A DNA stretch of 64,000 nucleotides from Patescibacteria group bacterium (GCA_041662665.1 JBAZSC010000001.1:577511-641510); one strand, 5' to 3'; shown: positions 24,618 to 62,061, numbered from the stretch's first letter. Numbers and translations: made by a program. Notes: a model not told the origin generated them from the letters alone.

Positions 24618-24660
24618 TTTTGAATTTATCAGCGTTAAATCAGCGTTAGAAATCAGCGTC
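24618..24660 (+). repeat. 4 x ATCAGCGT element (periods 11-13-11)
   Basis: atcagcgttaa atcagcgttagaa atcagcgtcga atcagcgc. Confidence 0.85.
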
Positions 24661-25237
24661 GAATCAGCGCTTGCTTCAATCTTGCATAAAAATTCTGCAT
24701 TTCATTTTTACTATAATTTTTCTTTAAGTTTAAGTCAATTTCAGTCAGTGTTAACAAATTTTGATCTGTTACACCAGCTGCAGAAATCGCAAAAGTCAGC
24801 TTATTATTTTTAATATAATAATTACTCAACAAAAATTCTCTCAAATTAAAATTAGCACATGCTTTTTTCCATTGTGAATCGATATCTGTAACTTTTGTAT
24901 CAACAAATTCATATTTATCAAATGCTTTTTCAGCACCTAATCTTATTGAACTTGGCTGTCCACTATATTTTACGCATAAATTTGCATCATTAAAATTGGG
25001 TGGAATTCTAACTGAAAAATAAATTAATTCTGCCTTAACTTTTTGCGAATAATCACTGCCAACATGTTCAACGGGCAATAGTCTATACCAAGGATACGGA
25101 TTAGAAAAACGCAACGAATCATCAGGATTAAAATTATAAACAATTGTCATATTCTTATCAAACACAAAAAACATTGATAAAACATAGATTATCACTGCGA
25201 CAAACAGAATCCAAATTATTATCTTCAAAATTTTCAT
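24653..25237 (-). CDS. membrane-anchored hypothetical protein (N-terminal TM plus an extracytoplasmic domain)
   Basis: An ORF bracketed by two ATCAGCGT elements. The C-terminal ALIRR is encoded by the element. Confidence 0.5.
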   Translation of the reverse strand: MKILKIIIWILFVAVIIYVLSMFFVFDKNMTIVYNFNPDDSLRFSNPYPWYRLLPVEHVGSDYSQKVKAELIYFSVRIPPNFNDANLCVKYSGQPSSIRLGAEKAFDKYEFVDTKVTDIDSQWKKACANFNLREFLLSNYYIKNNKLTFAISAAGVTDQNLLTLTEIDLNLKKNYSKNEMQNFYARLKQALIRR

Positions 25238-34816: not shown

Positions 34817-34850
34817 AACTTTATGGACTTTATAACTTTAAAAACTTTAT
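34817..34850 (+). repeat. 4 x AACTTTAT element 6 bp upstream of the Dpm1-like start codon
   Basis: aactttat g gactttat a aactttaa aactttat aaactaat. Confidence 0.8.
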
Positions 34851-34906
34851 AAACTAATTATCATATATCATCTTACATTTTACCCCATAATAAAAAAAAA
34901 TCAATC

Positions 34907-34935
34907 TTGACAGATTTAAAATATGTATCTATACT
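34907..34935 (+). promoter_or_regulatory. sigma70 promoter of cassette A (TTGACA-N17-TATACT)
   Basis: Consensus hexamers with exact 17 nt spacing. Confidence 0.65.
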
Positions 34936-34980
34936 TATTTAATTGTTCCTTACCACCCACGAAGAGGAGGAAAGAAAAAG

Positions 34981-35367: not shown

Positions 35368-35381
35368 TTTACAATAGATTC

Positions 35382-35410
35382 TTTACAAATCAAAAATATT
35401 TATCTATACT
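35382..35410 (+). promoter_or_regulatory. sigma70 promoter of cassette B (TTTACA-N17-TATACT)
   Basis: Read directly. Confidence 0.6.
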
Positions 35411-35453
35411 TATTCAATTGTACATTCTCAACTCAAGAGAGGAGGAAAGAAAA

Positions 35454-36351: not shown

Positions 36352-36352
36352 T

Positions 36353-36392
36353 TTCTGCGTTTTTCTGCGTTCACTTCTGCGTATTTCTGCGT
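36353..36392 (+). repeat. 4 x TTCTGCGT element (periods 10-12-10) overlapping the flippase 3' end
   Basis: ttctgcgt tt ttctgcgt tcac ttctgcgt at ttctgcgt; it encodes the flippase C-terminal NQRRNTQK. Confidence 0.85.
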
Positions 36393-37837
36393 TGATTTAA
36401 TAATAATTTAATCTGTCCAATTTCACCTTGTCTAAAAAATCTCGTTGCAAAAAGTAGAATAAAAAATAATATTAACAAACATAAATTCAAAAGTATGGAT
36501 GTATAAAAAGAATAATTATTAAACAAATAGCTTAATGCCAAAAGACCGCCAGAAATTAAAACTAATTTGATAATTCTCATCCATTCATATACAACTTTAT
36601 AATAAAAATTAGAAACAAAATAAGTTAAGACAACCATCAAAACAAAACAAACAAAAGTTGACCAGGCAGCAGCCATCATTCCATATTTTGGAATAAATAT
36701 TATGTTCAAAATAATATTTAAGATTGCAGGAATTCCAACTAATAGGGGATAATATTTTGTTTTTTCTTCTAAATGCAAACCCGGCACAATCACAAAATGC
36801 ATGCCGTACAAAACATAAGAAAAAGCAATCAATGGAATTATTTTATAAGCATCAAAATATTCTGGTGATGAAACAACTTCCACAATTTGTTTTGCAAAAA
36901 TAGAAATTGTCAAAGCAATAAAAGAAGAAACAAGCAACCAATATGTCAAAGTTCGCGCATAAATTTGTTTTGTGTCATTTCTTTTTGCAACTGAAAAAGA
37001 AATCGTAGGCCAAGCAAGTTGAAAAGGAGTTACGAGTAAAATTGAAACTATAAATCCAATTTTATAACCAAGAGAATACAAACCAACCTCTGTCAAAGAA
37101 TCATAAACTTTCAAAAAATATCTATCAGACAAATCCATTACCCACATTGCCAGAGATGCTGGAATAATTGGAATTCCAAAAGCAAATAATTTTCTCAACA
37201 AATCTTTTGAAAAACTTAATTTAAGATAAGGAATTAAATTAAAAAGGAAAGGCACGCTGATAAATACTTGAGCAATAAAATTACCAAGCATTATGCCAAA
37301 CACACCCATTTTTGCAAACGCTACAAAATAAATATTTAGTCCCAAAACTAAACCAAACTTTAATAACGAAAAAATAATATATTTTACAGATTTTTCTTCG
37401 GCGCGAAAAACAGAAAAAGCAAGTGCCAAAAATACTGCAAACAAATTTGTAATCAATAATAAATTTACTAAATTTGCATATTGTGTTCCACCCAAAAATG
37501 TGTTTGCAATAAAATCTCTAAATAACCACAAAACCAAAGTGGATAAAATAGCAAGCGGAATTATAAACAAAAATGCAGTGCCAACCAATTGTTTCTGTTC
37601 AACGTCAGTCTTGCAATCTCTTTCATAACATTTAAAAATTGCCGAAGCAAAACCAAAAGACAAAAGCATTGATAAAATCAAAATCAAAGTATTCAAAATT
37701 TCCAACTGGCCATAATCAGCAGGTGATAAATACCTCGTGTACATTGGAATCAAAATAAACCCAACAATACTTTGCGCTAATGATCCAATAGCATAAACAA
37801 AAGAATGTTTAAATAATCTCCTAAATTGATCTAGCAT
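36371..37837 (-). CDS. Wzx/MOP-superfamily flippase
   Basis: A 488 aa polytopic membrane protein of the polysaccharide biosynthesis protein type. Confidence 0.7.
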   Translation of the reverse strand: MLDQFRRLFKHSFVYAIGSLAQSIVGFILIPMYTRYLSPADYGQLEILNTLILILSMLLSFGFASAIFKCYERDCKTDVEQKQLVGTAFLFIIPLAILSTLVLWLFRDFIANTFLGGTQYANLVNLLLITNLFAVFLALAFSVFRAEEKSVKYIIFSLLKFGLVLGLNIYFVAFAKMGVFGIMLGNFIAQVFISVPFLFNLIPYLKLSFSKDLLRKLFAFGIPIIPASLAMWVMDLSDRYFLKVYDSLTEVGLYSLGYKIGFIVSILLVTPFQLAWPTISFSVAKRNDTKQIYARTLTYWLLVSSFIALTISIFAKQIVEVVSSPEYFDAYKIIPLIAFSYVLYGMHFVIVPGLHLEEKTKYYPLLVGIPAILNIILNIIFIPKYGMMAAAWSTFVCFVLMVVLTYFVSNFYYKVVYEWMRIIKLVLISGGLLALSYLFNNYSFYTSILLNLCLLILFFILLFATRFFRQGEIGQIKLLLNQRRNTQK

Positions 37838-37859: not shown

Positions 37860-37947
37860 TTCAGCTTTCGTATCAGCGTTAGAATCAGTGCGTAATCAAC
37901 TTCTACATATCAGCGTTCGAAATCAGCGCCGAATCAGCTTCTACATA
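37860..37947 (+). repeat. two consecutive ATCAGCGT-family elements (4 plus 3 units), each ending in atcaRcttctaca
   Basis: ttcagctttcgt atcagcgttaga atcagtgcgta atcaacttctaca t atcagcgttcgaa atcagcgccga atcagcttctaca. Confidence 0.85.
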
Positions 37948-42138: not shown

Positions 42139-42186
42139 AATTCGAAAAGTAATTCGCAATATTCGAAAATTTATTTGAGTAATATT
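42139..42186 (+). repeat. 4 x ATTCGAAA-family element (intergenic copy)
   Basis: gaattcgaaaagta attcgcaatat tcgaaaattta tttgagtaatatt. Confidence 0.8.
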
Positions 42187-43392
42187 ATGAAGTACAACGT
42201 TATTATGTTTAACATGTCAGAATTCCGAGAATGGAAATCTGGCATTGTTAATCGAAATTATCATATTTTACATAATCTATTAGAAAAGGATCAAATCAAC
42301 AAAATATTTGCTGTCGATTTTTTGCCTTACACAAAAAAACGCGCTTTAAAAATTTTAATGCGTTCAATATTAAAATCACCTGGTGGCAAAAGAATTCATT
42401 TTGACTTAACTTCAAGATTAACAAAAATTAGTGATAAGCTTTACGTTTATTCAACAATAGATTCAATATTTAGCGAACAAAAAGTTTACAAAAAAATAAA
42501 CAAACTGATTAACAAGTATGATCTTTTTAACAATTTAACAGTTAAGCAATCAAACAATTTATTAGTTTGGTCATATTTTCCAATGTTTTCTGGCTATTTT
42601 AACTATTTTAAAAATTCGAAAATTAATTCGCAAAAATTCGAAAAAGAATTCGAGTGCGTCAGCGTCTTTGATACAGTTGATAATTGGATGGAGCATCCAA
42701 ACTTTACTAATTATAAAGACAGAATCAAAAATAATTATGAAATAATTTCTAAAGAATCAGATTATATTTTTACAGTTTCCAAAGATTTGCTTAACATTTT
42801 TCCAAACGCCAAAAATAAAGAATGGATTCCAAATGGCGTTGATCTAGAACATTTTAATAAAAAATCTGACAAAACAATAATCCATGCTGGTCATCCAATT
42901 ATCGGCTATGTTGGTACAATTGAAAAAAGATTGGATTTTGAATTGATAAAATATTTAAGCCTAAAAAATCCAGAAAAATCAATTGTTTTAATTGGCCCAG
43001 TTTGGAAAAACGCTCAAGTTGATGAACTAAAATCACAAAACAATATTCATTTTCTGGGCAGAAAATCATATTCAGAACTTCCATATTATATTAATGAGTT
43101 TGATGTTTGTATCATTCCTCACAAAATTGACAAATTCACAAAATCAATGAATCCATTAAAACTTTATGAATATTTGGCTTGTGGCAAACCAATTGTTACA
43201 ACCAAAGTTTCTGGCATCGAAAAGTTCCAAGAATTAATTTACACAGCTAAAACAAAAGAAGAATTCAATGAAAAAATAAGTCAAGCTTTATCAGAAAATA
43301 GTAAAGAGAAAATCGAAAGCAGAAAAAATGCAGTTCAAGATGAAAATTGGAAAAACAGAGTTAATCAAATGTTAGAAACAATCTCAAAATAA
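42187..43392 (+). CDS. GT1/GT4-family glycosyltransferase carrying an in-frame ATTCGAAA element (NSKINSQKFEKEFE)
   Basis: Start trimmed to the ATG at 42187; the track's N-terminal extension reads through the repeat element. The C-terminal domain has YVGTIEKRLDFELI...YEYLACGKPIVTT. Confidence 0.7.
   Translation: MKYNVIMFNMSEFREWKSGIVNRNYHILHNLLEKDQINKIFAVDFLPYTKKRALKILMRSILKSPGGKRIHFDLTSRLTKISDKLYVYSTIDSIFSEQKVYKKINKLINKYDLFNNLTVKQSNNLLVWSYFPMFSGYFNYFKNSKINSQKFEKEFECVSVFDTVDNWMEHPNFTNYKDRIKNNYEIISKESDYIFTVSKDLLNIFPNAKNKEWIPNGVDLEHFNKKSDKTIIHAGHPIIGYVGTIEKRLDFELIKYLSLKNPEKSIVLIGPVWKNAQVDELKSQNNIHFLGRKSYSELPYYINEFDVCIIPHKIDKFTKSMNPLKLYEYLACGKPIVTTKVSGIEKFQELIYTAKTKEEFNEKISQALSENSKEKIESRKNAVQDENWKNRVNQMLETISK
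42613..42656 (+). repeat. 4 x ATTCGAAA-family element inserted in-frame within the GT coding sequence
   Basis: aattcgaaaatta attcgcaaaa attcgaaaaag aattcgagtg. Confidence 0.8.
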
Positions 43393-43513
43393 AACGCTCC
43401 GAAACTTGGTTTCCTGTGTTAATATTCACAGCCATTATAAATAAATTAGACTTAAATAAAATTTGCATATTTAGAAAATTAGTACGAAACCGAGTTTCTT
43501 AAGATAATTCACA

Positions 43514-45475
43514 ATGAAACATTTCAAAAAATATTTATTCCCAATTCTTATAATCGCAATAGCGTTTCTTTTTTATTTTCCTTCTCTTAATGACAATTTT
43601 TTGTCAGACGATTATGATCATTTAATGTTTGCCAGATCGGTTGATAATGTAAAAATGATTCCGGGCATCTTCAAGATTCCAGGCGATATGTATCGACCAG
43701 TCATGAATTTATCAATTGTCATTGATTATTTAATTTATCATTACCATCCAACAGGCTTCCATTTTACAAGTTTATTATTATTTATTTTGTCTGCACTCTT
43801 AATTTATGCAATTGTCAAAAAGATTTCTAAAAATAGCTTAATGTCTTTTTTTGCTAGCTTAATTTTTATTGTCATTCCAAATCATTTCGAAACAACAATT
43901 TGGATCGCTGGCCGAACAGATTTGCTTGCTTGTTTTTTCTATTTATTAACAATTTATTTATTTATCCAATTTATTTTTAAAGAAAAATATTCTTGGCTCA
44001 TTTTATCTTATTTAGCTGCCATTCCCACATTTTTCAGTAAAGAAATTTCCATGACCTTGCCATTCACAATTGCCTTAATCTATTTAGTCTACTTAAGAAA
44101 AGAATCAAAGTTTAGCTTCAAAAAAATATTCTTGCTTTGGCTACCTTATATTGCACTTCTCATCATTTACTTAGTAATTCGTAAACAAATCGTCGGCAGT
44201 TGGATCGGAGGCTACAGATTATTTGGCGAAGTGTCTTCAACGTCTTTCTCTCCAAAAGCAATTTTATTGCCATTTTATTTTGTAAAATATCTATTTAATT
44301 TTGATTACCTTGCATCTTTTATTCCCAAATTTGCTACCAATTTTTCTGCTAATTTAGTTGCCATTTCAGGAATTGCAATTTTTTCAATTACAGCATTTTT
44401 ATTAAATTTAAAAAATCTCAAAAATCTAAAATTTTGGAAAAATATTGTCTTTTTAATTTTCATTACATATTTCGTCTCCATTCCAAATTTTTCAATTCTG
44501 CCTTCTTTGAAATTAAATTTAATGAATACTAGAGTCTTGTACATCGCCTCAATTCCAATTGCCATTTTAATCTCATATTTAATTTTTTCTACCCTCCCCA
44601 TGGGAGGGGTGGGCAAAAAGCTAAGAATAATTTTTGCATCTTTGATTTGCATTATCTTTAGCATCGGATTTTTCTTTAATTACATGCCTTGGCACAAGGC
44701 CCAAGCTAAATCAAAAATAATTCTAGATAGTATACAACAATTGCATCCAGAATTTTCCCAAATAGTTTATGCAACTTATGACAAAGAATTATTTTTCAAA
44801 AATTTGCCAGACAATATTTATGGCGCCTTTGTTTATCGCAATGGATTTCCAGAAGCTTTAAGAATTAAATTTAATAATAAAAAGATTTTCGTAAATCCAA
44901 AAGAAAAAATTGTTTGGGTTGTTAAAAATAATAAGGATGCCATTACATCTTTATGTAATTTCAAAAAAAATCCGCAGACAACTGGAATTCAAGTTTTTAA
45001 TTGGAATGACCTAGATGAAGTAAACAGATTTATTGAACAGCCAAGCATCGCCGAAAAACAAGAAAATAAAAAAATACTTAAACAACAATATTCTCAGCAA
45101 ATTCAAGAGTTTAATCAACAATTAAACAATTTAGCGCTTGAGCAATTTAACAATATAAATTCAAGTGGAAAAACAACAGCATTAAAAAGTCCTGAATTAA
45201 ATTTTCCTCCACAAATTATTGATGAATTAAGTTTTAAAATGACAGCGCAACAAAATTCTATCGCTGACTTTTTATGGCGTACAAAAAATTCAAAATTTAA
45301 CGACTTAAATAATAATATTTTACTGCCAATTAAAGCAGGGGATAATGAATACAAAATTGATTTAACAAAATGCCCAGCCTGGTTTACATCAACAACAAAT
45401 GATATCAACCAATTTGAATTAATTCCAACTGAAAAAAGACAGAAAATTAAAATAGATAATATAGAAATAAAATAA
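43514..45475 (+). CDS. GT-C family membrane glycosyltransferase (PMT/ArnT-like) carrying an in-frame REP-like insertion
   Basis: A polytopic protein with the first-loop motif FLSDDYDHLMFARS. The GC-rich palindrome at 44587..44613 encodes STLPMGGVGKK. Confidence 0.6.
   Translation: MKHFKKYLFPILIIAIAFLFYFPSLNDNFLSDDYDHLMFARSVDNVKMIPGIFKIPGDMYRPVMNLSIVIDYLIYHYHPTGFHFTSLLLFILSALLIYAIVKKISKNSLMSFFASLIFIVIPNHFETTIWIAGRTDLLACFFYLLTIYLFIQFIFKEKYSWLILSYLAAIPTFFSKEISMTLPFTIALIYLVYLRKESKFSFKKIFLLWLPYIALLIIYLVIRKQIVGSWIGGYRLFGEVSSTSFSPKAILLPFYFVKYLFNFDYLASFIPKFATNFSANLVAISGIAIFSITAFLLNLKNLKNLKFWKNIVFLIFITYFVSIPNFSILPSLKLNLMNTRVLYIASIPIAILISYLIFSTLPMGGVGKKLRIIFASLICIIFSIGFFFNYMPWHKAQAKSKIILDSIQQLHPEFSQIVYATYDKELFFKNLPDNIYGAFVYRNGFPEALRIKFNNKKIFVNPKEKIVWVVKNNKDAITSLCNFKKNPQTTGIQVFNWNDLDEVNRFIEQPSIAEKQENKKILKQQYSQQIQEFNQQLNNLALEQFNNINSSGKTTALKSPELNFPPQIIDELSFKMTAQQNSIADFLWRTKNSKFNDLNNNILLPIKAGDNEYKIDLTKCPAWFTSTTNDINQFELIPTEKRQKIKIDNIEIK
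44587..44613 (+). repeat. REP-like GC-rich palindrome (ccctccccatgggaggg), an in-frame copy
   Basis: ttctaccctccccatgggaggggtggg matches the hairpins flanking the RAYT gene. Confidence 0.75.
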
Positions 45476-45476
45476 A

Positions 45477-45498
45477 AAAATCATGTTTTCACATGATC
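45477..45498. terminator. hairpin (atcatg-ttttca-catgat) between convergent genes
   Basis: Read directly. Confidence 0.45.
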
Positions 45499-45784
45499 AA
45501 AAGTTCCATTTTATGCCTTTCTTCAACGAATCAATTCGTTTGAATGCTATTAAAATAATTATTACTGCTTCGCCTAAACCAAGAAACAAAAGACCCTCAT
45601 CCCCCTCTTTTAAATAGAAACCACCCAGTATTAACATAAAAGAAAGAAAAATCCCAAATTTCCAAAATCGTATTGAATCAAGCCAACTCTTTTTCTTAGC
45701 AAAGAAAACATATGAAATAATAATTGTACAAGAAAACATTACGATACAAAACAAACACTTTAGTATTAGCATTATTGTTTCCAT
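45497..45784 (-). CDS. small membrane protein (95 aa, 2-3 TM)
   Basis: An ORF with a hydrophobic profile, divergent from the GT2 gene. Confidence 0.4.
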   Translation of the reverse strand: METIMLILKCLFCIVMFSCTIIISYVFFAKKKSWLDSIRFWKFGIFLSFMLILGGFYLKEGDEGLLFLGLGEAVIIILIAFKRIDSLKKGIKWNF

Positions 45785-45913
45785 CCCTTCCTCCTCCTCC
45801 AGTTTCTGCTTTCAACGACAACCAAATATAGCATAAATTAAAAATAATATCAAATAATATAACAATTTATATTTATTCTAACCAAAATTATTAATATTTA
45901 ATATTCAACATTC

Positions 45914-46828
45914 ATGCTTCTCTCAATCATCATAGTCAACTGGAACACTAAAGAATTATTACGCAAATGCATTCAATCAATCATGTCAAACGCGCCTAGT
46001 TTTGATTATGAAATAATTGTCATCGACAATGCCTCAACTGATGGTTCAGCTGATATGCTAAAATATGAGCTTTCCAAAGATCAATATTTAGATCGTTTTG
46101 ATTCTGTTACCAATGCTCATGTCATTATCAATGAAAAAAACTTAGGCTTTGCAAAAGCAAACAATCAAGGAATAAAAAGAGCAAAAGGGGATTATATTTT
46201 ATTATTAAATCCAGATACCGAAGTCCAGCATAATTGTCTTCAAAGAACAGTTAATTTTTTGAATGAATTCAAAGAAGTTGGAATTTTAGGATGCAAACTT
46301 TTAAATCCAGACAGAACACTTCAACATTCAGTCAGAAAATTTCCAACTCTCATGTCTCAAGTTCTAATTCTCTTAAAACTTCATAATTTATTTCCAACCT
46401 TAAAGTCCTTACAAAATTACTTTCTTCCAAACTTTGATTACAATAAAAGCCAAGAAGTTGACCAAGTCATGGGCGCATATTTTTTAATTAACAGAAAAGT
46501 AATAGACAAAATTGGCATGCTGGATGAAAAATATTGGATCTGGTTTGAAGAAGTTGATTATTGCAAAATGGCCAAAAATGCTGGTTTTCAAGTTTATTAT
46601 TTCAAAGATGCAGAAACAATCCATCAAAAAGCCCAAGCTTTTAATCAAGTTTTAGGAATAAAAAAACAAGTTTATTTAAATAATTCACTTTTGCATTATT
46701 TCAATAAATTCCATTCACTATTTAGCGTTCTTGTAATTTTATTTTTATATCCAATAAGTTTATTTTTAGCCTTGATTGTTGATTTTGTAAAATTGTTTAT
46801 TCCCGTAAAGAAAAAAGAAAACCTTTAG
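45914..46828 (+). CDS. GT2 glycosyltransferase with a C-terminal TM segment
   Basis: Carries LSIIIVNWNTKELLRKCIQSI...IVIDNASTDGS. Confidence 0.85.
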   Translation: MLLSIIIVNWNTKELLRKCIQSIMSNAPSFDYEIIVIDNASTDGSADMLKYELSKDQYLDRFDSVTNAHVIINEKNLGFAKANNQGIKRAKGDYILLLNPDTEVQHNCLQRTVNFLNEFKEVGILGCKLLNPDRTLQHSVRKFPTLMSQVLILLKLHNLFPTLKSLQNYFLPNFDYNKSQEVDQVMGAYFLINRKVIDKIGMLDEKYWIWFEEVDYCKMAKNAGFQVYYFKDAETIHQKAQAFNQVLGIKKQVYLNNSLLHYFNKFHSLFSVLVILFLYPISLFLALIVDFVKLFIPVKKKENL

Positions 46829-46862
46829 CTTCTACCCTCCCCATGGGAGGGGTTTGTGAAAC
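46829..46862 (+). repeat. REP-like GC-rich hairpin (left flank of RAYT)
   Basis: cttctaccctccccatgggaggggtttgtgaaac contains the 17-bp perfect palindrome ccctccccatgggaggg. Confidence 0.8.
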
Positions 46863-46881
46863 AAAAATAAAACAAAAATCA

Positions 46882-47496
46882 ATGCAACAACCCCTTCCAC
46901 AAAAACAAAAAATATTTTGGCAAGATAATTCTTTTTATTTTTTAACAACCTCAACATTTCTGCATTATCCATATTTTAAAGTGCCTGAACAAAAACAAAT
47001 TGTTTTAAATAAATTCAAGCAAATCAAAGAGATTTTAAAAGTTCCTTTTCAATCACACAGCATTGCAATCAACCATTTTCATATTATGTTTTATTTAAAA
47101 TCCGGAAAAACAATGGCTCAACTAAAAAATATGTTGCACAGTGGAATATCAAGAGAATACAAAAAATTTTATCAAATCAAATGCAAAAATTTCTGGCAAA
47201 CAACAAAAATATTTTTTATTAAGGATGAAAAAATGTACTGGCAAATTATTGGATACATCAATGGCAATCTACTAAAACATCGAGAAGTTAGCAGATTTGA
47301 AGACTTAAAAGAGAATCCTTTTTCAAGCTACAAATATTATGCAGAAAAATATGGCGATGAAACAATGCAAGGATTAATTCGAAATGTTATAAATCTTGAC
47401 GAAGACAATGAAGGAACGCTTGATCTTAAACAGCTTAAATCATTAAAAACAAAGAATTTACCTCAAACCACGCAACCCTTGGCATGGCCAAGGTAG
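46882..47496 (+). mobile_element. REP-associated tyrosine transposase (RAYT, IS200/IS605 TnpA-like Y1 HUH transposase)
   Basis: Has the HUH motif HFHIM followed by MAQLKNMLHSGIS, comparable to IS200 HxHhh...KGxSS. The N-terminal YFLTTST resembles the RAYT YHVTxR block. A candidate catalytic Tyr lies in MYWQIIGYINGN. GC-rich REP-like hairpins flank it on both sides. Start trimmed to the ATG at 46882. Confidence 0.6.
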
Positions 47497-47498
47497 AA

Positions 47499-47533
47499 GT
47501 TCTACCCTGCCCACGGCAGGGGTTCGTAAAACA
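47499..47533 (+). repeat. REP-like GC-rich hairpin (right flank of RAYT)
   Basis: gttctaccctgcccacggcaggggttcgtaaaac has a 7-bp stem ccctgcc/ggcaggg and the same flanks as the left copy. Confidence 0.8.
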
Positions 47534-47541
47534 AGCAAAAA

Positions 47542-49263
47542 TCATTCAATCATTATCTTCTTAAACTCAACTGAACCCTTTTTACTTCCTACAAAATCCA
47601 ATCTAATAATCTGCACCAAATCATTTTTTCTTAAATCAAAATCAAATTCATAAGCATGAAATTTTCCATCTTTATGAATTTTTTTTATAACAGAATTACT
47701 AGACAAAAAATCCTTATCGCCAAGATATCTAAATTCAACTTTCAACTTTTTAAATTCAGTATTCTTTAATTTTAATTTTAAACATTTAACAACATTAGTA
47801 TCCAATCTCAAATTCGGATCACTTCTCAAAAATGCATCTTTCTTATTTATTTTTAAAACATAATTCTTATTTTTATTTTTCCATTTAGAATTTTTAGCAA
47901 TCCATTTTTTAGATATTAAATTATATTTTTCATCATTCGAAATTAATGGTTTATGTTCATTTGTCCAATCAATATGCAAAAAAGCATTCTTATTTAAAAA
48001 CGCTAGAATAATCAAAATCAAAACTGGCATAATAAATTTTAACTTGCCAGCAAAAATAATATTTATTGCCAAAACAAACATTAACATTGCAGAAAATAAT
48101 GCTGGCAAAAGATATCGTCCTTGTGGCTGATAATTATCTAAGCTGTAATAAAAAGTTGTCAAAAAAGCAACAATAAAAAACAAAAATATTATCAAAACAA
48201 TATTAAATTTATCTTTTTGCTTTTTCCAAATTAAAAATAAAGAAACAGGCAATAATATTGCAACTAAAATTAAAAAATATAAAAAATAATCATAATATTT
48301 TGGATCAAAACCGATATTAGCTTGTCCAAAAACACCTAAAAAATTCTTAAATAATTCATTTAGCCAAGTTACAAAATTATTAAAATTCCATAGATCTCGA
48401 TGCTGTCCTTCCCAAAATTTATTGGCAAATTTCAATCCAAAGATGTCACCAACAAAAATCAGATTTCTAAACATCCAAGCAAAGCAAACAATCAAAGCAG
48501 GCGATAAAGTAAATTTCAAATAATCTTTCCAATTGTTTCTATTTTTCCAAAATATAATTATTAAAAATAACATTGCAAATGGATACAACGTCAATTTTGT
48601 CAAAAACGCCAAACCAGCAATCACTCCACAAACGAATAAATCAAGATTAAAAAATCGTAATTCGCCAATTCGCATATTCGTATCATTTGCATAAATTCGT
48701 ATATTTGTATTATGCTTAACAACAAAATACAGCATCATCACACCCAGCAAATTAGCTAAAACATCATTATTAAGCACCCCAGAAATAAACAAAAACATTG
48801 GCCAAAAACAAAAAGCCAATGTCAAACTATAATAAATTATTCTTTCTTTGTCCGCCGTAGTCCCGCAGGCTTGTCTGCCGTAGCCGAAGCGAAGGCAGGA
48901 CGAAGGCGGATTAAACAATAACTTAGCGGTAAGAAAAGCAAAAATGACGGTTAAAACGCCAAGCAAGCTTGAAAAAAATCTTAAAATTTTTATTTCGGAA
49001 TCAATTAATATTTTATTTTTTAAGACAAGATCAATAGGCGATAAAAAAAGATAATATAATGGCGGTTGATGCGCTTCCCAAAAAGAAGTTTTATTTGTTA
49101 GAGCAGGAAAGTGATGATTATTATTTAAAAATCTGATATATTCAAAATGAGAGAACTCATCTGGTGCAGAAAACTTTTCTGTCTTAAAATTATATATATT
49201 TGCAACAATCAAAAATATCCCACACATCAGAATTAAGAAAATAGCATCAACTTTATTTTTCAT
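47542..49263 (-). CDS. GT-C family membrane glycosyltransferase (GT39 PMT-like, DE motif) carrying two in-frame repeat insertions
   Basis: The first loop has FSAPDEFSHFEYIRFL, resembling the PMT DEVHFG motif. The GC-rich insert at 48851..48910 encodes PSSCLRFGYGRQACGTTADKE. The AT-rich ATTYGYAT insert at 48655..48720 encodes NIRIYANDTNMRIGE. Confidence 0.6.
   Translation of the reverse strand: MKNKVDAIFLILMCGIFLIVANIYNFKTEKFSAPDEFSHFEYIRFLNNNHHFPALTNKTSFWEAHQPPLYYLFLSPIDLVLKNKILIDSEIKILRFFSSLLGVLTVIFAFLTAKLLFNPPSSCLRFGYGRQACGTTADKERIIYYSLTLAFCFWPMFLFISGVLNNDVLANLLGVMMLYFVVKHNTNIRIYANDTNMRIGELRFFNLDLFVCGVIAGLAFLTKLTLYPFAMLFLIIIFWKNRNNWKDYLKFTLSPALIVCFAWMFRNLIFVGDIFGLKFANKFWEGQHRDLWNFNNFVTWLNELFKNFLGVFGQANIGFDPKYYDYFLYFLILVAILLPVSLFLIWKKQKDKFNIVLIIFLFFIVAFLTTFYYSLDNYQPQGRYLLPALFSAMLMFVLAINIIFAGKLKFIMPVLILIILAFLNKNAFLHIDWTNEHKPLISNDEKYNLISKKWIAKNSKWKNKNKNYVLKINKKDAFLRSDPNLRLDTNVVKCLKLKLKNTEFKKLKVEFRYLGDKDFLSSNSVIKKIHKDGKFHAYEFDFDLRKNDLVQIIRLDFVGSKKGSVEFKKIMIE
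48851..48910 (+). repeat. GC-rich imperfect inverted repeat inserted in-frame in the GT-C gene
   Basis: tccgccgtagtcccgcaggc...gcaggacgaaggcgga; about 65% GC in a roughly 30% GC context. Confidence 0.7.
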
Positions 49264-49269
49264 AACAAA

Positions 49270-49301
49270 TCAATTTAACAATTTAACAATTCAGCAATTT
49301 A
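49270..49301 (+). repeat. 4 x 8-mer array with no spacers (CAATTTAA CAATTTAA CAATTCAG CAATTTAG)
   Basis: Read directly in the divergent intergenic region. Confidence 0.6.
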
Positions 49302-49313
49302 GTTTAGTCTATC

Positions 49314-50501
49314 ATGAAAATAAAAAAAATTTTAGCATTAATACCAGCCTTGATTATTTTAATTTTTCCATTCTTTTCGCAAGCTTACAATATTCAAGAC
49401 TATATTAAAACAACATATAATCGTTATTCAAAACATTTTGACAAAAATGGCTGGCATTATAATCAGCCAAATTATTCTATAGATAACAAATACCCAAACA
49501 CTGCGCGCGAATGGTCAATGTTTGCATCTTATTATTATAATCGATTAGATAATCAAAAAACAAAAATACAGATTAAGGCAGCTTTAAACAATGCAATCCT
49601 AGAATTGCAGGCTAGACCAACAATCACTCAATCATTTAACGATTCAATCGCTCATTACTTAATTTATCAGCAAAAAAACTTATTTAGCAAAGAGGAAAAA
49701 GAAATTTATTATTCTCAAGTAAAAGAATCACTTTTCGCTAGAGTGAATATTAACGATAGTGAAAATCGAGGAATAATTGCTGGAGTTCTAGATTCATATT
49801 TAGCTAACAAACTATATTTTGATAAACAAATTGATAGGCAACAATACAAATTTCTAATTAAAAGAAACAAGCAAAAAATTTCCAAAAGCATAAATCAATG
49901 TATTGATGAAAATGACTGGTATTTTGAAGGCGATCAAAAATATTTTTCAACCCATTATCATGTTTTATCAGCATATTTGTTAATGTTCTACAGTGATTAT
50001 TTTAACAACGAAAAATATCTAGATTTGTCCAAAAAAATGACATCAAACATCAGAAAACTAACTTTCCAGAATGGATTTATTGAGGCAAAAATAGGCATGC
50101 GACCAATTGGCTTGGGCGCTCAAACATATTTAATGCTTGGCATTTTAAACAAAAGATTTAACCACAAAGATTATAGTGTTTATTTAAATTATGTTAAACC
50201 TCGTTTTTTTAATGATAAAGCATCTCCAAATCGCTTAGAATTTCATTCAACTATGATAGACACAGAACCAAATTATCATGACGATATTGGATTCAGTTTG
50301 ATTGCTGAAATTTCCAAGAATGATAATAAAATAATAAACACAAAATTTAAAAAAGAAATAAATAGAATAAATTTAAAAAATAACTCGTATCAAGATAAAA
50401 GGTTTACAATAAAAAATAATGGTGGGATAATTATAATAAATAATAAAGAATACCAACTCGCCACAAACGGCGATTATTCCCGAATCTTCACGATTAAATA
50501 G
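49314..50501 (+). CDS. secreted hypothetical protein (signal peptide, 395 aa)
   Basis: The N-terminus MKIKKILALIPALIILIFPFFSQA is a signal peptide. No motif was recognised. Confidence 0.5.
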   Translation: MKIKKILALIPALIILIFPFFSQAYNIQDYIKTTYNRYSKHFDKNGWHYNQPNYSIDNKYPNTAREWSMFASYYYNRLDNQKTKIQIKAALNNAILELQARPTITQSFNDSIAHYLIYQQKNLFSKEEKEIYYSQVKESLFARVNINDSENRGIIAGVLDSYLANKLYFDKQIDRQQYKFLIKRNKQKISKSINQCIDENDWYFEGDQKYFSTHYHVLSAYLLMFYSDYFNNEKYLDLSKKMTSNIRKLTFQNGFIEAKIGMRPIGLGAQTYLMLGILNKRFNHKDYSVYLNYVKPRFFNDKASPNRLEFHSTMIDTEPNYHDDIGFSLIAEISKNDNKIINTKFKKEINRINLKNNSYQDKRFTIKNNGGIIIINNKEYQLATNGDYSRIFTIK

Positions 50502-50514
50502 TTTTACGAAGCAT

Positions 50515-50585
50515 TTATTCGAAAAGGTATTCGCTTATATTCGCAAAAGTATTAGAGTGAGCCCCGAAAAAGTATTAGAGTAAGG
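50515..50585 (+). repeat. divergent ATTCGAAA-family element
   Basis: attcgaaaaggt attcgcttat attcgcaaaagtattagagtgagccccgaaaaagtattagagt. Confidence 0.6.
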
Positions 50586-50612
50586 CAACAAAAAAGACTA
50601 CAAGCAGTAGTC

Positions 50613-51332
50613 TTAACCCAAAATGATCTTCAATAAATGTGCAGTATTCGTCAAGTCGTCAAACAGATAATCAGGAGATGCAATTACTAATTCTTCTCTA
50701 GAAACCAATCCAGTAGAAACACCAATCGTTTTTACACCAGCAATTTTTCCTGTTTTAACATCTCTAGGCGTATCACCAAACAGAAAAACCCTGTCTTCAG
50801 GTGCCCAATGATTTTCTTCATTTTTCTTCAAAGCCATTTTGACCAAATCTAAACGCTGTAATGCTTGATCACCAAATTGCCTAATTCTGAAAAATGGAAT
50901 CAATCCAGCTTTCCGAAGTTTACATTTAGCAATTCCTTCAACAGCACCAGTAACAACTCCCAACGCAACACCATTTCTAATCAATGCCCTAAGCAGTTCT
51001 TTCACTCCTGGCAAAGCACAAATTTCCATTTGCCTAACATCAGATTCATAAAACGCAGCCATTTCCGAAAAAATTGCAAATAACTTTTCATGAGCTACAA
51101 TTTTATCCATTCCATATTTTGCAAGCAAAGCATAAATCAATTGCGTGTCTGTCAAACCATGGTAATCAATTCCATCCAAAGAAGCATCCTTAATCCCACA
51201 AACTTTTTCCAATGCATAATAAACTGCTTTTCCATGCCCACCATTGTTAATTCCAGACGGAATCAAAGTTCCATCCATATCAAACAAAACCAAAACCTTA
51301 AACATATAGCTCCTGAACTGTGCATCTGACAT
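50613..51332 (-). CDS. HAD-superfamily hydrolase (phosphatase/beta-phosphoglucomutase-like)
   Basis: Carries motif I, VLFDMDGTL, and a motif IV region, LFGDTPRDVKTG. There is a strong SD; an alternative ATG at 51305 is also SD-preceded. Confidence 0.75.
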   Translation of the reverse strand: MSDAQFRSYMFKVLVLFDMDGTLIPSGINNGGHGKAVYYALEKVCGIKDASLDGIDYHGLTDTQLIYALLAKYGMDKIVAHEKLFAIFSEMAAFYESDVRQMEICALPGVKELLRALIRNGVALGVVTGAVEGIAKCKLRKAGLIPFFRIRQFGDQALQRLDLVKMALKKNEENHWAPEDRVFLFGDTPRDVKTGKIAGVKTIGVSTGLVSREELVIASPDYLFDDLTNTAHLLKIILG

Positions 51333-51379
51333 CTCTCCCTCCTCTGCATGTAAAGAACCTACCGAAATCTGACTAATAA

Positions 51380-51408
51380 AATATATACTAAATAAGTATT
51401 TTTGTCAA
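51380..51408 (-). promoter_or_regulatory. sigma70 promoter of the HAD gene (TTGACA-N17-TATATT on the minus strand)
   Basis: Read directly; it has the same style as the cassette promoters. Confidence 0.55.
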
Positions 51409-51451
51409 AGCTTTAATATAAAAATAAATATTTAACTCAAAACAAAAAATA

Positions 51452-53056
51452 ATGCCTAATTTCTTACAACCAAAATTAATCTTAAAAATAACAGCAATTT
51501 GCCTTCTTTTTTATATTCTATCATTTTTTGCATACCTATTTCCCATTTTTAACAGCCTAATTTTTTGGTTAATTGTGATTGGAGCTTTTGCCTTAACAAT
51601 AAAAAAATTAGAATATGGCGTATTTATCGTTCTTACAGAATTGTTTATTGGCGTCAAAGGCTATTTATTTTCTTTTGATTTTGGCGGCAGATTTGTTCTA
51701 TCAATCAGAATCGCTCTTTTTGCAATGGTCTTTCTAATTTGGTTATTTAGAAGAGCAAAAACATATGAAGCAGGTAAATATAATTTTCTTTATTCAAAAT
51801 TTTTTGTTCCTTTTGCAATTTTCACTTTTTTTATTCTAATTGGTTTTTCAACTGGACTAATTAATGGCAATTTTGCTAAAAATATTTTCTTTGATGCTAA
51901 TGGATATCTTTATCTAGCTTTTGTTTTTCCAATTTTTGATATTATTCATAATAAAATTAAAGTTAGAAAACTAATTCAATATCTGGTTGCCGGAAGTTTG
52001 GCAATTACAATTTTAACTTTTTATGTTTCTATTGGCTTTACCATAATGCATCAAGACGCAAGACCAGGAATGGCTGGAGCAAAATCAACAGAGCAAACAT
52101 TAGAATCAGAAGAAGCTGGAGAGTTTATGATTTCACACTCAATTTTTGCTAAAGAAGAATTAATGTCTCGTGCCTTCTTCAGAAATCTAGATACCCCAAA
52201 ACCATACATTTATCGTTGGACACAAGATACTGGAATGGGCGAAATATCATATTTGACAGGTCCATTTTTTCGTTTCTTTTCAGCTGGACAACTCTATTCA
52301 GCTTTAGTATTTATAATTCTACTGGCAAAATTTTTGCAAGACAAAAAATTACAATTTAAAAATAATATCTTCCAATTATTAATATCTGCTTTGTGCGGAC
52401 TTGCTGTTATAGTTGGTTTTTCAAGAAGTCTTTGGATTGGACTAGTATTCGCATTAATCTTTTTGCTTTTCAATCTTCCAAAAAGAAGAGCTGCAAAAAT
52501 TGCTCTCTATTCAATTGGCATAATTTCATTAATTATTATAATATTTGGAACATTATTGCCTCAAGTTTACGACGTAGTAGGCGATAGAGTCGCCAGTATT
52601 TTTCAGCCAAAAACAGAAGCTGCAGCCTCAAATCGTTATAATGTATTAACACCAGCTCTTCAAAAAATAAAAGAACATCCTATTTTAGGCTCAGGATATG
52701 GAACAACAATTGAATATACAAGCGTCGCACTTGAAAAATTTGGCACAGTCAGAGTTTTTTCATTTGAATGGGCTTATTTAGATACAATCATTGAAATCGG
52801 TATTTTAGGATTGCTTTCATATTTATGGTTTATTTTTTCAATCTTCAAAGATGGCTACAAAACAAAAGAAGAAGATAATAAAAAATTAGTCATTTGTTTT
52901 TTAACTGGAATTGTTTTAATATTATTTACTAACATTACAACTCCATTTTTAAATCATCCTTTAGGCATTGGATTTATTCTAATTACTGCTGCAATAATTT
53001 ACGCCTTAGAAAAAATTAAAGCTCAGACAATTACTAAATCAAGTTCAAAAGCCTAA
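51452..53056 (+). CDS. O-antigen ligase/polymerase-like (Wzy_C domain) polytopic membrane protein
   Basis: About 12 TM segments. Has the periplasmic loop motif GFSRSLWIGL...GSGYGTT. Confidence 0.6.
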   Translation: MPNFLQPKLILKITAICLLFYILSFFAYLFPIFNSLIFWLIVIGAFALTIKKLEYGVFIVLTELFIGVKGYLFSFDFGGRFVLSIRIALFAMVFLIWLFRRAKTYEAGKYNFLYSKFFVPFAIFTFFILIGFSTGLINGNFAKNIFFDANGYLYLAFVFPIFDIIHNKIKVRKLIQYLVAGSLAITILTFYVSIGFTIMHQDARPGMAGAKSTEQTLESEEAGEFMISHSIFAKEELMSRAFFRNLDTPKPYIYRWTQDTGMGEISYLTGPFFRFFSAGQLYSALVFIILLAKFLQDKKLQFKNNIFQLLISALCGLAVIVGFSRSLWIGLVFALIFLLFNLPKRRAAKIALYSIGIISLIIIIFGTLLPQVYDVVGDRVASIFQPKTEAAASNRYNVLTPALQKIKEHPILGSGYGTTIEYTSVALEKFGTVRVFSFEWAYLDTIIEIGILGLLSYLWFIFSIFKDGYKTKEEDNKKLVICFLTGIVLILFTNITTPFLNHPLGIGFILITAAIIYALEKIKAQTITKSSSKA

Positions 53057-53065
53057 CACAAAACA

Positions 53066-53626
53066 ATGATCTTATCCGACAAAGACATCAAAAAAGCATT
53101 AGTTAATCAAGACATAAGTATTGATCCATTTGATAAAAAATACATTCAGCCAGCATCAATTGACTTACATCTAGACCGACATTTTTTAATTTATAACACC
53201 AGCAAAAATTACGTCATTGATCCAAAAAAGAAAATAGATACAATGATGGAAAAGATTTCTATCGAAAAAGATAATCCTTTTGTTTTACATCCTGGAGAAT
53301 TTGCTCTTGGAATGATCTATGAAAAAACAGGTGTTTCTTCATCATATGTCGGCCGTCTAGAAGGCAAGAGCTCAGTTGGCAGAATGGGCTTGCTAATTCA
53401 TGTCACTGCTGGCTTTCTTGATCCAGGAAATTCATTAAAAATGACATTAGAATTACATAATACAGCTAATCTACCAATTTTGTTATATTACAAAATGCCA
53501 ATCGCTCAAATGGCTTTCGAAAAATTATCATCTCCTTGCGATAATCCTTATTCAAAAAAGAATAACAATAAGTATGTCGGCGATCTCATGCCAAAAGCAA
53601 GTCAAATGTGGAAAAATTTTTGCTAA
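53066..53626 (+). CDS. dcd: dCTP deaminase
   Basis: MILSDKDIKKAL...PASIDLHLD...HPGEFALG...GRLEGKSSVGRMGLLIHVTAGFLDPG is colinear with E. coli Dcd. Confidence 0.9.
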   Translation: MILSDKDIKKALVNQDISIDPFDKKYIQPASIDLHLDRHFLIYNTSKNYVIDPKKKIDTMMEKISIEKDNPFVLHPGEFALGMIYEKTGVSSSYVGRLEGKSSVGRMGLLIHVTAGFLDPGNSLKMTLELHNTANLPILLYYKMPIAQMAFEKLSSPCDNPYSKKNNNKYVGDLMPKASQMWKNFC

Positions 53627-53650
53627 AAAAAACAGTAGGAATTAAAAATC

Positions 53651-54703
53651 ATGAAAGTCACAATTTCGTTATTAAATTATAATAAGAAAAAATATCTTCC
53701 ATATTGTCTAGATTCAGTTCTTCAGCAATCACATCAAGATCTAGAAATATTTTTTGTAGATAATGCATCATCAGACAGTTCTTTTGAATACCTAAAAAGT
53801 TATGCTGAGCATAAATACCCATTAGCAAAAATAAATTTTATCAGAAACCAAGAAAATTTAGGATATTCAAAAGCACATAATGAAGTTATTAAAAAAGCAA
53901 CAGGTGAATTTATTTTTTGCTTAAATCCAGACATTATTTTAAACAAAGATTATATTAAAAATTGCCTAGAAATTTTGATGCAAAATCCAAAAATGGGTGC
54001 AATTACAGGAAAACTTTTTAAATGGGATTTTGCTCAAAATACAAAAACTAATATCATTGATTCCTGCGGACATAGAATTTTAAAAACACATCGCATTATA
54101 GAATGGGGAAGCAATCAAAAAGATTCTCCAGAATTTGAAACTATAAAAAAAATATTCAGCGTCTCTGGTGCGGCTCCAATTTATCGCAAAGAAGCACTTG
54201 AAAGTATAAAATTCAAAATTCCCCAAAATTCGAAAAATAATTCGCAAACATTCGAAAATAAATTTGAGTATTTCGACGAGTCATTTTTTGCCTACAAAGA
54301 AGACATTGATCTATCATGGCGCTTATTACATGCGGGCTGGGAAATCTGGTTTGATCACAAATCACATGCCTGGCATGACCGCTGGGAGACAGGAACAGGA
54401 GAAACAGCTCTAAAAACAGCAGAGCAAAGAAACAAAAAATCTGACTTAATTAACAAATTATCATACCGTAATCATTTATTATTGTTATACAAAAATGAAT
54501 TTGCAAGTAATTTCTTAATTTATTTCCCATGGATCTTCTTTTATGAACTTGGCAAATTCTTTTACACCTTATTCAGAGAACCAAAAAATCTATCAGCTAT
54601 AATTGAATTATTCAAACTCTGCAAATTGACCAAAGCAAAAAGAAATGCTATAATAAAAAATAGCAAGATCAAGCCAAAAGATATCAGAAAATATATCTAC
54701 TAA
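53651..54703 (+). CDS. GT2 glycosyltransferase carrying an in-frame ATTCGAAA element (NSKNNSQTFENKFEYF)
   Basis: Carries VTISLLNYNKKKYLPYCLDSV...FFVDNASSDSS. The element is at 54227..54276. Confidence 0.8.
   Translation: MKVTISLLNYNKKKYLPYCLDSVLQQSHQDLEIFFVDNASSDSSFEYLKSYAEHKYPLAKINFIRNQENLGYSKAHNEVIKKATGEFIFCLNPDIILNKDYIKNCLEILMQNPKMGAITGKLFKWDFAQNTKTNIIDSCGHRILKTHRIIEWGSNQKDSPEFETIKKIFSVSGAAPIYRKEALESIKFKIPQNSKNNSQTFENKFEYFDESFFAYKEDIDLSWRLLHAGWEIWFDHKSHAWHDRWETGTGETALKTAEQRNKKSDLINKLSYRNHLLLLYKNEFASNFLIYFPWIFFYELGKFFYTLFREPKNLSAIIELFKLCKLTKAKRNAIIKNSKIKPKDIRKYIY
54227..54276 (+). repeat. 4 x ATTCGAAA-family element in-frame within the GT2 gene
   Basis: aattcgaaaaata attcgcaaac attcgaaaata aatttgagta. 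Confidence 0.8.
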
Positions 54704-60329: not shown

Positions 60330-60389
60330 ATTCAAATAATTTGCATATTCGCTAGATTTGCATTATTTGTATATTCGTATTATATTTTC
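60330..60389 (+). repeat. ATTYGYAT-family element forming the pyrG leader (shares a 28-mer with 32689..32716)
   Basis: atttgcatattcgctagatttgcattatttgtatattcgtattatattttc, followed by the ATG. Confidence 0.7.
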
Positions 60390-62018: not shown

Positions 62019-62061
62019 CCAAAAATAAAATCGCCTCATCGGCGATTTTTAGTTTTAAAGT

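Follow-up and report, generated by a model that had tools for sequence, protein, structure and literature searches.

Four-unit octamer arrays, intergenic and in-frame within two unrelated glycosyltransferases, in a Patescibacteria surface-glycan island

Four octamer arrays in the window

We examined a 64,000-nucleotide stretch of the genome of a Patescibacteria group bacterium (GCA_041662665.1 JBAZSC010000001.1:577511-641510); "the window" below means this whole stretch, and positions are counted from its first letter. The window has a GC content of 30%, and almost its entire length belongs to an island for cell-surface glycan biosynthesis, as judged from Pfam scans of most of its open reading frames (ORFs; about seven small ones near 59–64 kb were left out) at thresholds of E ≤ 1e-3 for the glycosyltransferase (GT) cluster and E ≤ 1e-5 for other ORFs. 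Within the island lie four copies of a 42–45 nt element made of four phased octamers, with the architecture ATTCGAAA-N4-ATTCGCAA-N1-2-ATTCGAAA-N4-ATTYGAGT. By direct reading of the sequence, the + strand carries all four copies, starting at 42140, 42614, 50517 and 54228. A preliminary description of this DNA had listed four copies, and each is present essentially where it had placed them; the periods it gave, 12-11-12, need correction, as we measured 12-9-12 in the first copy (c1) and 12-10-12 in the others (c2–c4).

Copy c1 (42140–42180, +; ATTCGAAAagtaATTCGCAAtATTCGAAAatttATTTGAGT) is intergenic, between an NHL/TIG gene and a GT1/GT4-type (TuaH-like) glycosyltransferase gene (42187..43392, +; hereafter GT1). 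Copy c2 (42614–42655, +; ATTCGAAAattaATTCGCAAaaATTCGAAAaagaATTCGAGT) is in-frame within GT1, and c3 (54228–54269, +; ATTCGAAAaataATTCGCAAacATTCGAAAataaATTTGAGT) is in-frame within a GT2-family glycosyltransferase gene (53651..54703, +; hereafter GT2). Copy c4 (50517–50558, with a partial unit to 50583, +; ATTCGAAAaggtATTCGCTTatATTCGCAAaagtATTAGAGT, then aagtATTAGAGT) occupies a convergent spacer. Pfam matches agree with the hosts named in the preliminary description: Glycos_transf_1, Glyco_trans_1_4 and Glyco_trans_1_2 for GT1, one homolog of which carries the source name TuaH, and Glycos_transf_2 for GT2 (E = 4e-25). The reading frame of the element, which is free of stop codons, is identical in c2 and c3. 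As the underlying DNA is also the same, the two non-homologous enzymes do share a peptide, NSK.NSQ.FE..FE (NSKINSQKFEKEFE in c2 and NSKNNSQTFENKFE in c3), as had been claimed.

The repeat is real. Searching all sequence collected with a 42-nt nhmmer profile gave every one of the four copies an E-value between 6e-11 and 3e-10, and the 20-nt pattern ATTCGAAANNNNATTCGCAA has three exact matches. Single octamers were barely enriched (20 observed against 12.6 expected, 11 of the 20 being within arrays). Three core octamers of the ATTCG[A/C]AA type followed by a distinct terminal octamer, ATTNGNGT, characterise what we call family D, and c1, c2 and c3 have in common an A-C-A-A pattern at position 6 across units R1–R4. 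The octamers are also constrained: mean information content across 14 family-D arrays was 1.69 bits per position in the octamer cores and 0.75 in the spacers. c1 and c3 differ at 0/32 core and 4/9 spacer positions, c2 and c3 at 1/32 and 4/10, and pairwise comparison of c1–c3 overall gives differences at 0–1 of 32 core positions versus 4–5 of 9–10 spacer positions. Since the cores are far better conserved than the spacers, we conclude that the octamers are maintained, including within the two coding regions.

The arrays are tandem direct repeats with conserved cores, and their periods of 12-10(9)-12 fit the ~10–11 bp periodicity expected of an operator of the OmpR/PhoB type. The 12-10-12 spacing amounts to two 22-nt double-turn units, and in both c2 and c3 Tandem Repeats Finder recognised a 22-nt super-unit occurring twice. 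Matching in that program was only 74–90%, at a period of 10, 12 or 22, with spacers that vary within arrays; we did not see the near-perfect head-to-tail units, of a length divisible by three, that are expected of Borg-like amino-acid tandem repeats. Borg tandem repeats are perfect head-to-tail units that arise locally and give perfect amino-acid tandem repeats in ORFs (PMC9879509). Like them, the present arrays are A-rich, occur both between and within ORFs and encode disordered surface segments, in the Borg case often in envelope or extracellular proteins (PMC9879509). Unlike them, the arrays consist of octamers with variable spacers in a dispersed 42-nt unit, and their spacings of 12, 10 and 12 are not all multiples of three. 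Individual units are not of 3n length, whereas the net coding changes (45 and 24 nt) are.

The coding copies compared with their orthologs

Alignment of GT1 with orthologs lacking the insert, a check proposed in the preliminary description, gave a consistent result: c2 was present in none of 24 aligned homologs (43–84% identity). The closest four, P0002–P0005 (79–84% identical over the alignment), read FKNFSVAKTINVFD at the site where the window protein reads FKNSKINSQKFEKEFECVSVFD, that is, 8 codons versus 16, and the lineage-specific segment corresponds to codons S144–S159 (42616–42663). The array was likewise absent at the DNA level from the syntenic GT1 loci L026, L028, L030, L032 and L033. 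As judged from these alignments, c2 was gained recently and in the window lineage only. Directly 3' of c2, at 42656–42666, lies GCGTCAGCGTC, which contains an octamer, TCAGCGTC, resembling those of another array family (family A, described below). This segment encodes CVSV, the first residues of a conserved beta strand, which read TINV in the closest orthologs. The presence of this octamer means that the c2 event may have brought in more than a family-D array.

The c3 loop is located between ALESIK and EYFDE of GT2. The loop is short in distant GT2 homologs and in the close orthologs P0123 (KYNNE) and P0128 (EYNNQ), which are shorter by exactly 15 codons (45 nt), as is the empty allele in L032. 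By contrast, P0122 (86% identical) and P0126 (63% identical) carry the array at the c3 site, where they read ATTCGAAAtctgATTCGCAAacATCTGAAAataaATTTGAGT and ATTCGAAAaataATTTGCAAacATTTAAAAacaaATTCGAAT, respectively; nearly the same peptide and DNA thus occur at the same place in both (NSKSDSQTSENKFE, DSKNNLQTFKNKFE). The arrays of P0124 and P0127 are degenerate, and P0125, compared as protein only, has a loop of similar length. In a neighbour-joining tree calculated without the loop, the empty P0123 was nested beside carriers and the empty P0128 was sister to carriers. Empty alleles are therefore nested among carriers, which implies repeated gain or loss, or recombination. Because the 86% and 63% orthologs share peptide and DNA at the same place, c3 is by this comparison not a recent hit; it is an old gain with largely vertical inheritance and a patchy distribution discordant with the gene tree. 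The same alignments indicate that the longer loop is not ancestral, as the wider GT2 family has the short one.

Both coding copies lie in low-confidence surface loops of otherwise confident AlphaFold models, consistent with the linker positions given in the preliminary description, which had also suggested mapping the inserts on predicted structures. The GT1 model has an overall predicted local distance difference test (pLDDT) score of 91.8, and its loop 144–156, flanked by helix 136–143 and strand 157–163 (AlphaFold 2), is at pLDDT 65–75. The GT2 model has an overall pLDDT of 91.0, with residues 194–202 of loop 191–203 below 50. Two further parts of the preliminary description fared less evenly. 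It had reasoned that the peptide would be ancestral if distant genomes carried it at the same place; orthologs at 86% and 63% identity do share the c3 peptide, and distant homologs have the short loop. Its description of an insertion holds in that an element of noncoding type is in-frame in two glycosyltransferases, but c2 is a replacement, c3 is old, and the element is not private to this genome.

Distribution, polarity and spread of the arrays

The intergenic copy c1 occupies the 49-nt spacer from the NHL/TIG stop (42137) to the GT1 ATG (42187) and ends 6 nt before that ATG. Upstream of GT1 it is positionally conserved in L028/L029; at the same position L026 has ATTAGCAA-type units throughout, and L030/L032 have a canonical TGGTATAAT -10 box instead. 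The public (Joint Genome Institute, JGI) call for GT1 is 392 aa long and starts at Met10 (42214), i.e. 9 codons late. The conservation in homologs of the preceding residues, K-Y/F-N/D-V/I-I-M-F-N, argues for ATG 42187 as the true start. The best sigma-70-like match of the region (TTGACA-17-TAAAAT, 11/12, 42027–42055) is ~130 nt upstream of the GT1 start, in the 3' end of the NHL/TIG gene; if this promoter were used, c1 would be part of the GT1 5' leader. Apart from this match, the promoter scan was uninformative, with 86 sigma-70-like sites against 76 ± 8 in shuffles.

The closeness of arrays to start codons could also mean that they are promoters of leaderless mRNAs, with R2 serving as the -35-like and R4 (ATTNGNGT) as the -10-like element, transcription starting (+1) at the A of the ATG, and the intragenic copies acting as internal promoters. 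Arrays end 4–7 nt before an ATG in c1, L028, L026, L003 (twice), L005 and L016 (twice), the R2–R4 distance yields a 17-nt spacer between the hexamers, and most genes here are without a Shine-Dalgarno motif. Nevertheless, we regard this explanation as highly improbable. An array of 42 nt in a spacer of 49 nt cannot but end close to the ATG; convergent spacers and positions behind terminators hold arrays as well; there is no start codon at the right distance after c2 or c3; and GT1 has the TTGACA-17-TAAAAT match upstream, while canonical TTGACA-N17-TATACT promoters with GGAGG leaders exist upstream of 34981 and 35454. Across the window, a minority of genes have such promoters and strong GGAGG leaders (34900–34980, 35380–35453, 45785–45800, 51333–51350 and 62761–62775), and most genes show no recognisable Shine-Dalgarno motif and leave no space for one. 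A Shine-Dalgarno-like role for R4 was rejected, since the variants GCG and GTG are unable to pair with CCUCC and true GGAGG leaders are found elsewhere.

Copy c4 lies in the convergent spacer between 49314..50501 (+) and a HAD gene, 50613..51332 (-). It has the variant ATTCGCTT in R2 and a duplicated terminal unit (ATTAGAGT twice), followed by GGCAACAAAAAA and then by a hairpin (50594–50614) that is the terminator of the minus-strand HAD gene. This subfamily, with ATTCGCTT in R2 and a GAG(G)CAAC(A)n tail plus hairpin, also occurs at the non-orthologous loci L004 and L014. The site orthologous to that of c4 has diverged arrays in L026 and L034 and none in L032. Overall, c1 and c4 are conserved in position in L026 and L028/L034, and their unit sequences may differ.

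Genome and metagenome scans revealed the family-D architecture in other Patescibacteria metagenome-assembled genomes (MAGs) with a GC content of 31–44% (L001–L005, L014 and L016). From these matches, the element is not private to this genome, and the family is shared across Patescibacteria. In L003, inverted pairs of arrays separate L16 from L29 and L2 from S19 in a ribosomal-protein operon; other arrays are between mutM and prfB (L004), before mutM (L005), beside a GT4 gene (L014), and before two paralogous (substrate-binding) lipoproteins (L016). Because the contexts in L003 and L005 are ribosomal-protein genes and mutM, the array-associated genes share no function, and we found no fixed position at the promoters of a coherent regulon (L29, S19, mutM, lipoproteins, GT1, convergent spacers, coding sequence). 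L003 (MAG STB_112, JAQTPI010000003.1) has eleven arrays in 8 kb (400–6800), several of which occupy intergenic spacers of the S10 ribosomal-protein operon. They belong to the families ATCTGTGT, with three 37-nt copies that are almost identical, ATTCGCAA, as inverted pairs, and TATTACTT. We found no description of such arrays in the literature on Saccharibacteria or Patescibacteria. A phage or plasmid origin was rejected, with no family-D array in 2.9 M viral contigs; a scan of viral contigs for arrays of the family-A unit, ATCAGCGT, returned mostly 12-nt coding repeats and two non-12-nt arrays (L049, L055).

Inspection of all upstream regions and a census of short-period repeats brought the number of octamer families in the window to at least six (A–F), family D among them. 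An array comprises about four units when most complete and, in some families, ends with a unit of a characteristic type. 6-mers repeated at 8–13 nt occur at 18.3/kb in intergenic DNA versus 3.5/kb in coding DNA, and the 79 such repeats observed between genes compare with 11.2 ± 4.5 in shuffles. Arrays are situated upstream of starts, in convergent spacers by terminators, and across gene 3' ends. The arrays of the window show a strong strand bias: 21 of 22 are on the + strand and 1 is on the - strand, whichever way the neighbouring genes point. Over most of the window the GC skew is negative. The pattern suggests polarity with respect to replication, of the sort known for Chi, FtsK-orienting polar sequences (KOPS) or single-strand transposition. 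L058, which is 100% identical to the source, extends it by ~3.6 kb, too short for a replichore-switch test. There is also regional clustering, with family D confined to 12 kb and family A to 23 kb.

These observations bear on the main rival explanation, that the arrays are ordinary cis-regulatory operators. One direct-repeat-binding factor (e.g. of the OmpR/PhoB type, as two dimers) would control the surface glycan cluster; c1 would be the operator of the GT1 promoter, and c2 and c3 would be functional sites within genes, acting as roadblocks or in an auxiliary role, having evolved in, or been recruited to, loops that tolerate them. Among winged-helix response regulators, operators are direct repeats, such as the pho box of PhoB and the four TT(A/T)ACA repeats of Bacillus subtilis PhoP. 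Like them, the arrays have four direct repeats about one helical turn apart (12-10-12, with a 22-nt super-period), conserved cores and free spacers, and one copy is by a promoter with intragenic copies in a cell-envelope polymer gene cluster. An operator would also fit the position of c1, where L030/L032 have a canonical extended -10 promoter, the grouping of all four window copies within 12 kb of glycosylation island, and the retention of perfect octamers in the intragenic copies. Unlike response-regulator operators, however, the arrays are associated with no common gene function, and elsewhere the same array precedes the unrelated L29, S19, mutM and substrate-binding lipoprotein genes. c4 and arrays of other families are placed next to terminators in convergent spacers, which are not expected to hold promoters, and arrays occur in ribosomal-protein operons. 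Orientation tracks the chromosome strand rather than the gene, and unit-specific variants common to several loci point to copying of the whole element rather than independent evolution of sites. Moreover, at least six families in a genome of ~0.65 Mb would demand many regulators, and no cognate regulator was seen among the window ORFs scanned. Weakened by these observations, the operator explanation strikes us as unlikely.

The mode of spread can be addressed from the variants themselves. The recurrence across loci of unit-specific variants and of the 12-10-12 spacing indicates that whole 42-nt units are copied, and that the sites did not evolve independently. The same evidence bears on local slippage, in which arrays would be born in situ in A/T-rich DNA, the copies would be convergent, and the peptides would be low-complexity loop. 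In keeping with slippage, the genome is 30% GC, short-period repeats are common in spacers, units at times change in concert within an array (as at c1 in L026, where all are of the ATTAGCAA type), and both host loops vary in length across homologs. Slippage would homogenise spacers too, yet spacers differ in sequence and length within arrays; the 12-10-12 pattern and the R2- and R4-specific variants recur across loci and across genomes of different GC; profile E-values are ~1e-10; and relative to orthologs c2 is a 48-for-24-nt block rather than a unit-wise expansion. We therefore consider slippage a very doubtful source of the arrays.

A miniature transposon of the classical kind (a miniature inverted-repeat transposable element, MITE; a Rickettsia palindromic element, RPE; or a repetitive extragenic palindromic element, REP), mobilised by a transposase in trans, is only slightly easier to defend and seems to us a poor fit. 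The window copies would be solo ends and the inverted pairs of L003 and L004 complete elements. Such pairs have the terminal unit outermost (CTCACTCTAAT...ATTCGAGTGAG in L004, and two pairs in L003), and presence/absence is patchy among close relatives. However, the window copies have no terminal inverted repeats, target-site duplications or hairpin potential; c2, c3 and c4 contain no inverted repeats apart from the neighbouring terminator. At 42–45 nt they are shorter than MITEs, which usually measure roughly 50–500 bp. By eye, spacers in the arms of inverted pairs are no more complementary than those of any two family members. No transposase was found among the window ORFs scanned or at the syntenic loci, and viral contigs held no copies. 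In-frame occupation of unrelated genes is known for RPEs (PMC10969869). According to that summary of Ogata et al. (2000, 2002), RPEs are palindromic and ~100–150 bp long, and they share with the present element a short dispersed repeat that is both intergenic and in-frame in unrelated enzymes, a conserved peptide at fold-compatible positions, and patchy presence among related, reduced genomes (PMC10969869). Here too, copies are found between genes and in-frame in unrelated genes at fold-compatible surface positions. The present element is unlike an RPE in consisting of four direct octamers over 42–45 nt with no hairpin, terminal inverted repeats or target-site duplications, in its strand polarity, and in being one of several octamer families. 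A palindrome or terminal inverted repeats and a target-site duplication with clean empty sites were not observed. Being made of direct repeats, 42–45 nt long and without a palindrome, the element was not assigned to the RPEs or MITEs. The MITE/RPE, slippage and leaderless-promoter explanations are each contradicted by these specific tests.

Several other identities were rejected. The predicted RNA folds of c1–c3 are indistinguishable from those of shuffles (z-scores of -0.2 to -0.8) and the whole window has no Rfam match, excluding a structured RNA or riboswitch. Comparison by eye found no match, in sequence or distribution, to DnaA boxes, the CodY box, Fur/ARG boxes or DNA uptake sequences. 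[quoted passage not shown] The present units, of 8 plus 1–4 nt, leave no space for guide spacers, and the Pfam scans of most window ORFs detected no Nop-domain protein.

On balance, we favour the view that the element is an intergenic array, probably protein-read, that spreads by copying of the whole unit and is now and then captured in-frame where a loop is permissive. Arrays of this kind do fill spacers between genes in this Saccharibacteria-like Patescibacteria genome and its relatives, and such spacers would be the element's natural habitat. The octamers would be read on DNA by a sequence-specific protein, as suggested by the helical phasing, the lack of RNA structure, and an orientation that is constant on the chromosome rather than relative to genes. 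New copies would be made by replication-linked copying, through template switching or gene conversion at A-rich microhomology, or by a recombinase; a classical cut-and-paste transposon is not indicated. A coding copy would survive only if the frame were kept and a permissive surface loop were hit, and the rare captured copies would persist in envelope enzymes, encoding NSK.NSQ.FE..FE.

A number of observations weigh against the view of a spreading, occasionally captured array. The conserved octamers and their location by start codons fit a purely regulatory element equally well. We found no terminal inverted repeats, target-site duplications or clean empty-site junctions at c1–c4, whose flanks share no duplicated bases, so mobility is deduced from distribution alone. 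At c2 the window alone has 48 nt in place of 24 (net +24), which makes the change a replacement and no clean insertion of 45 nt; relatives hold different sequence at the site, as they do at c1, and neither an empty-site boundary nor a target duplication is seen at c2. At c3 the empty allele is shorter by exactly 45 nt, with changes in the codons on its flanks, and the GT2 tree is without support values, with the four closest proteins nearly equidistant (84–89%). The Pfam scans of most window ORFs detected no transposase, recombinase or obvious DNA-binding regulator. Copying must be rare, because c1, c3 and c4 are mostly vertical between the window and the L028/L034 organism. Finally, strand polarity is known from a single 64-kb stretch, and arrays in L003 and L004 are of mixed orientation, on both strands.

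Further array families and biological meaning

Family A (unit ATCAGCGT) is represented by seven arrays, all on the + strand with periods of 11–13, at 15276–15308, 24208–24231, 24628–24671, 25279–25300, 27458–27489, 33824–33855 and 37860–37940. These arrays usually close with the variant unit AATC[AT]GCTTCTAC; two are inside minus-strand DUF1616-like ORFs, one overlaps the stop of 24653..25237, and the family is also present in L026 and L031. Families B (unit TTCTGCGT; 29601–29642, 36352–36395 and 62061–62102) and C (unit ACTTTATA; 30975–31010, 34818–34853 and 63305–63340) each have four-unit arrays, all on the + strand. Several of these are in convergent spacers, directly beside intrinsic terminators, and the array at 36352 provides the last codons and stop of a minus-strand flippase gene (36371..37837). 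Family E (unit CAATTTAA) has an array at 49263–49301, in the divergent spacer at 49.3 kb, and look-alikes in coding DNA at 42526–42561 (GT1) and 45114–45157 (a PMT_2 gene). The look-alike in GT1 corresponds to a second loop (residues ~111–122, pLDDT 73), which is 3–5 aa longer than in the closest orthologs.

Family F (units ATTTGCAT / ATTCGTAT) has arrays at 32576–32700 and 60344–60389, with units ATTTGCAT, ATTCGTAT and ATTTGTAT at a period of 8–9. The first is an inverted pair between two minus-strand genes at a site conserved in L026; the second ends 9 nt before the CTP synthase ATG. A further family-F array (48659..48710, +; units ATTCGCAT, ATTCGTAT and ATTTGCAT) is in-frame within a gene for a DUF2142-like membrane protein (47542..49263, -), where the window protein reads KHNTNIRIYANDTNMRIGELR versus RLFVCES in the L032 ortholog, a gain of 14 aa. 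By this alignment, the capture of arrays in coding sequence is recurrent, the DUF2142 gene being a third case.

Other short insertions were observed in the same region. A GC-rich palindrome, CTACCCTCCCCATGGGAGGGGT, is present three times (44587–44631, 46830–46874 and 47500–47544), once in-frame in the PMT_2 gene, where STLPMGGVGKK aligns with NDL---NNKKK of orthologs. At 48850–48910, the DUF2142 protein is ~20 aa (PPSSCLRFGYGRQACGTTAD) longer than in L032 owing to a different GC-rich segment of 60 nt. These two are RPE-like palindromic insertions in coding sequence. The PMT_2 ortholog of L030 (Ga0265427_1093057) carries, at a different site of the protein, an insertion of 12 aa not shared with the window, NTQARFRNLACE. 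Short insertions that are specific to one lineage may be common among the envelope enzymes of this clade.

REPs are palindromes that form hairpins and are linked to REP-associated tyrosine transposases (RAYTs; Y1 HUH). Like REPs, bacterial interspersed mosaic elements (BIMEs) and the intergenic repeats of Mycoplasma hyopneumoniae, the arrays are abundant, lie in the spacers of a compact genome, and are upstream of genes or by terminators (PMC5179023). For the tandem and palindromic intergenic repeats of M. hyopneumoniae, a regulatory role is suspected and unproven (PMC5179023). Unlike REPs and BIMEs, the arrays are unstructured direct repeats whose four-unit architecture is conserved across distant Patescibacteria; we found no hairpin in them, and no RAYT gene in the window ORFs scanned or at the syntenic loci.

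More tentatively, octamer arrays, with at least six families per genome, could constitute an undescribed class of Patescibacteria element. Such arrays, each of about four phased units with a distinct last one, would be co-oriented on the chromosome, their octamers kept by selection for a conserved reader (a protein or an RNA-guided complex); they would spread as whole units by replication-coupled single-strand copying, and would recurrently give rise to new disordered surface loops in envelope enzymes. We put this forward as a possibility to which we give limited credence.

To our knowledge, RPEs are essentially the only dispersed repeats for which in-frame colonisation of enzymes is well documented. 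Here the same outcome is reached by a structurally different, direct-repeat array, in a bacterium belonging to the candidate phyla radiation (CPR) with a genome of ~0.65 Mb. Much of its scarce intergenic DNA appears to consist of the arrays, which are possibly an undescribed class of polar octamer arrays in CPR genomes. Because they abut start codons and gene ends, they can mislead gene callers, as in the JGI call for GT1. A dedicated reader or copying mechanism, should there be one, would be new to CPR chromosome biology and would offer a handle on the regulation or diversification of surface-glycan machinery; and if the arrays are indeed an undescribed class, they would be a source of protein innovation in ultra-small symbionts.

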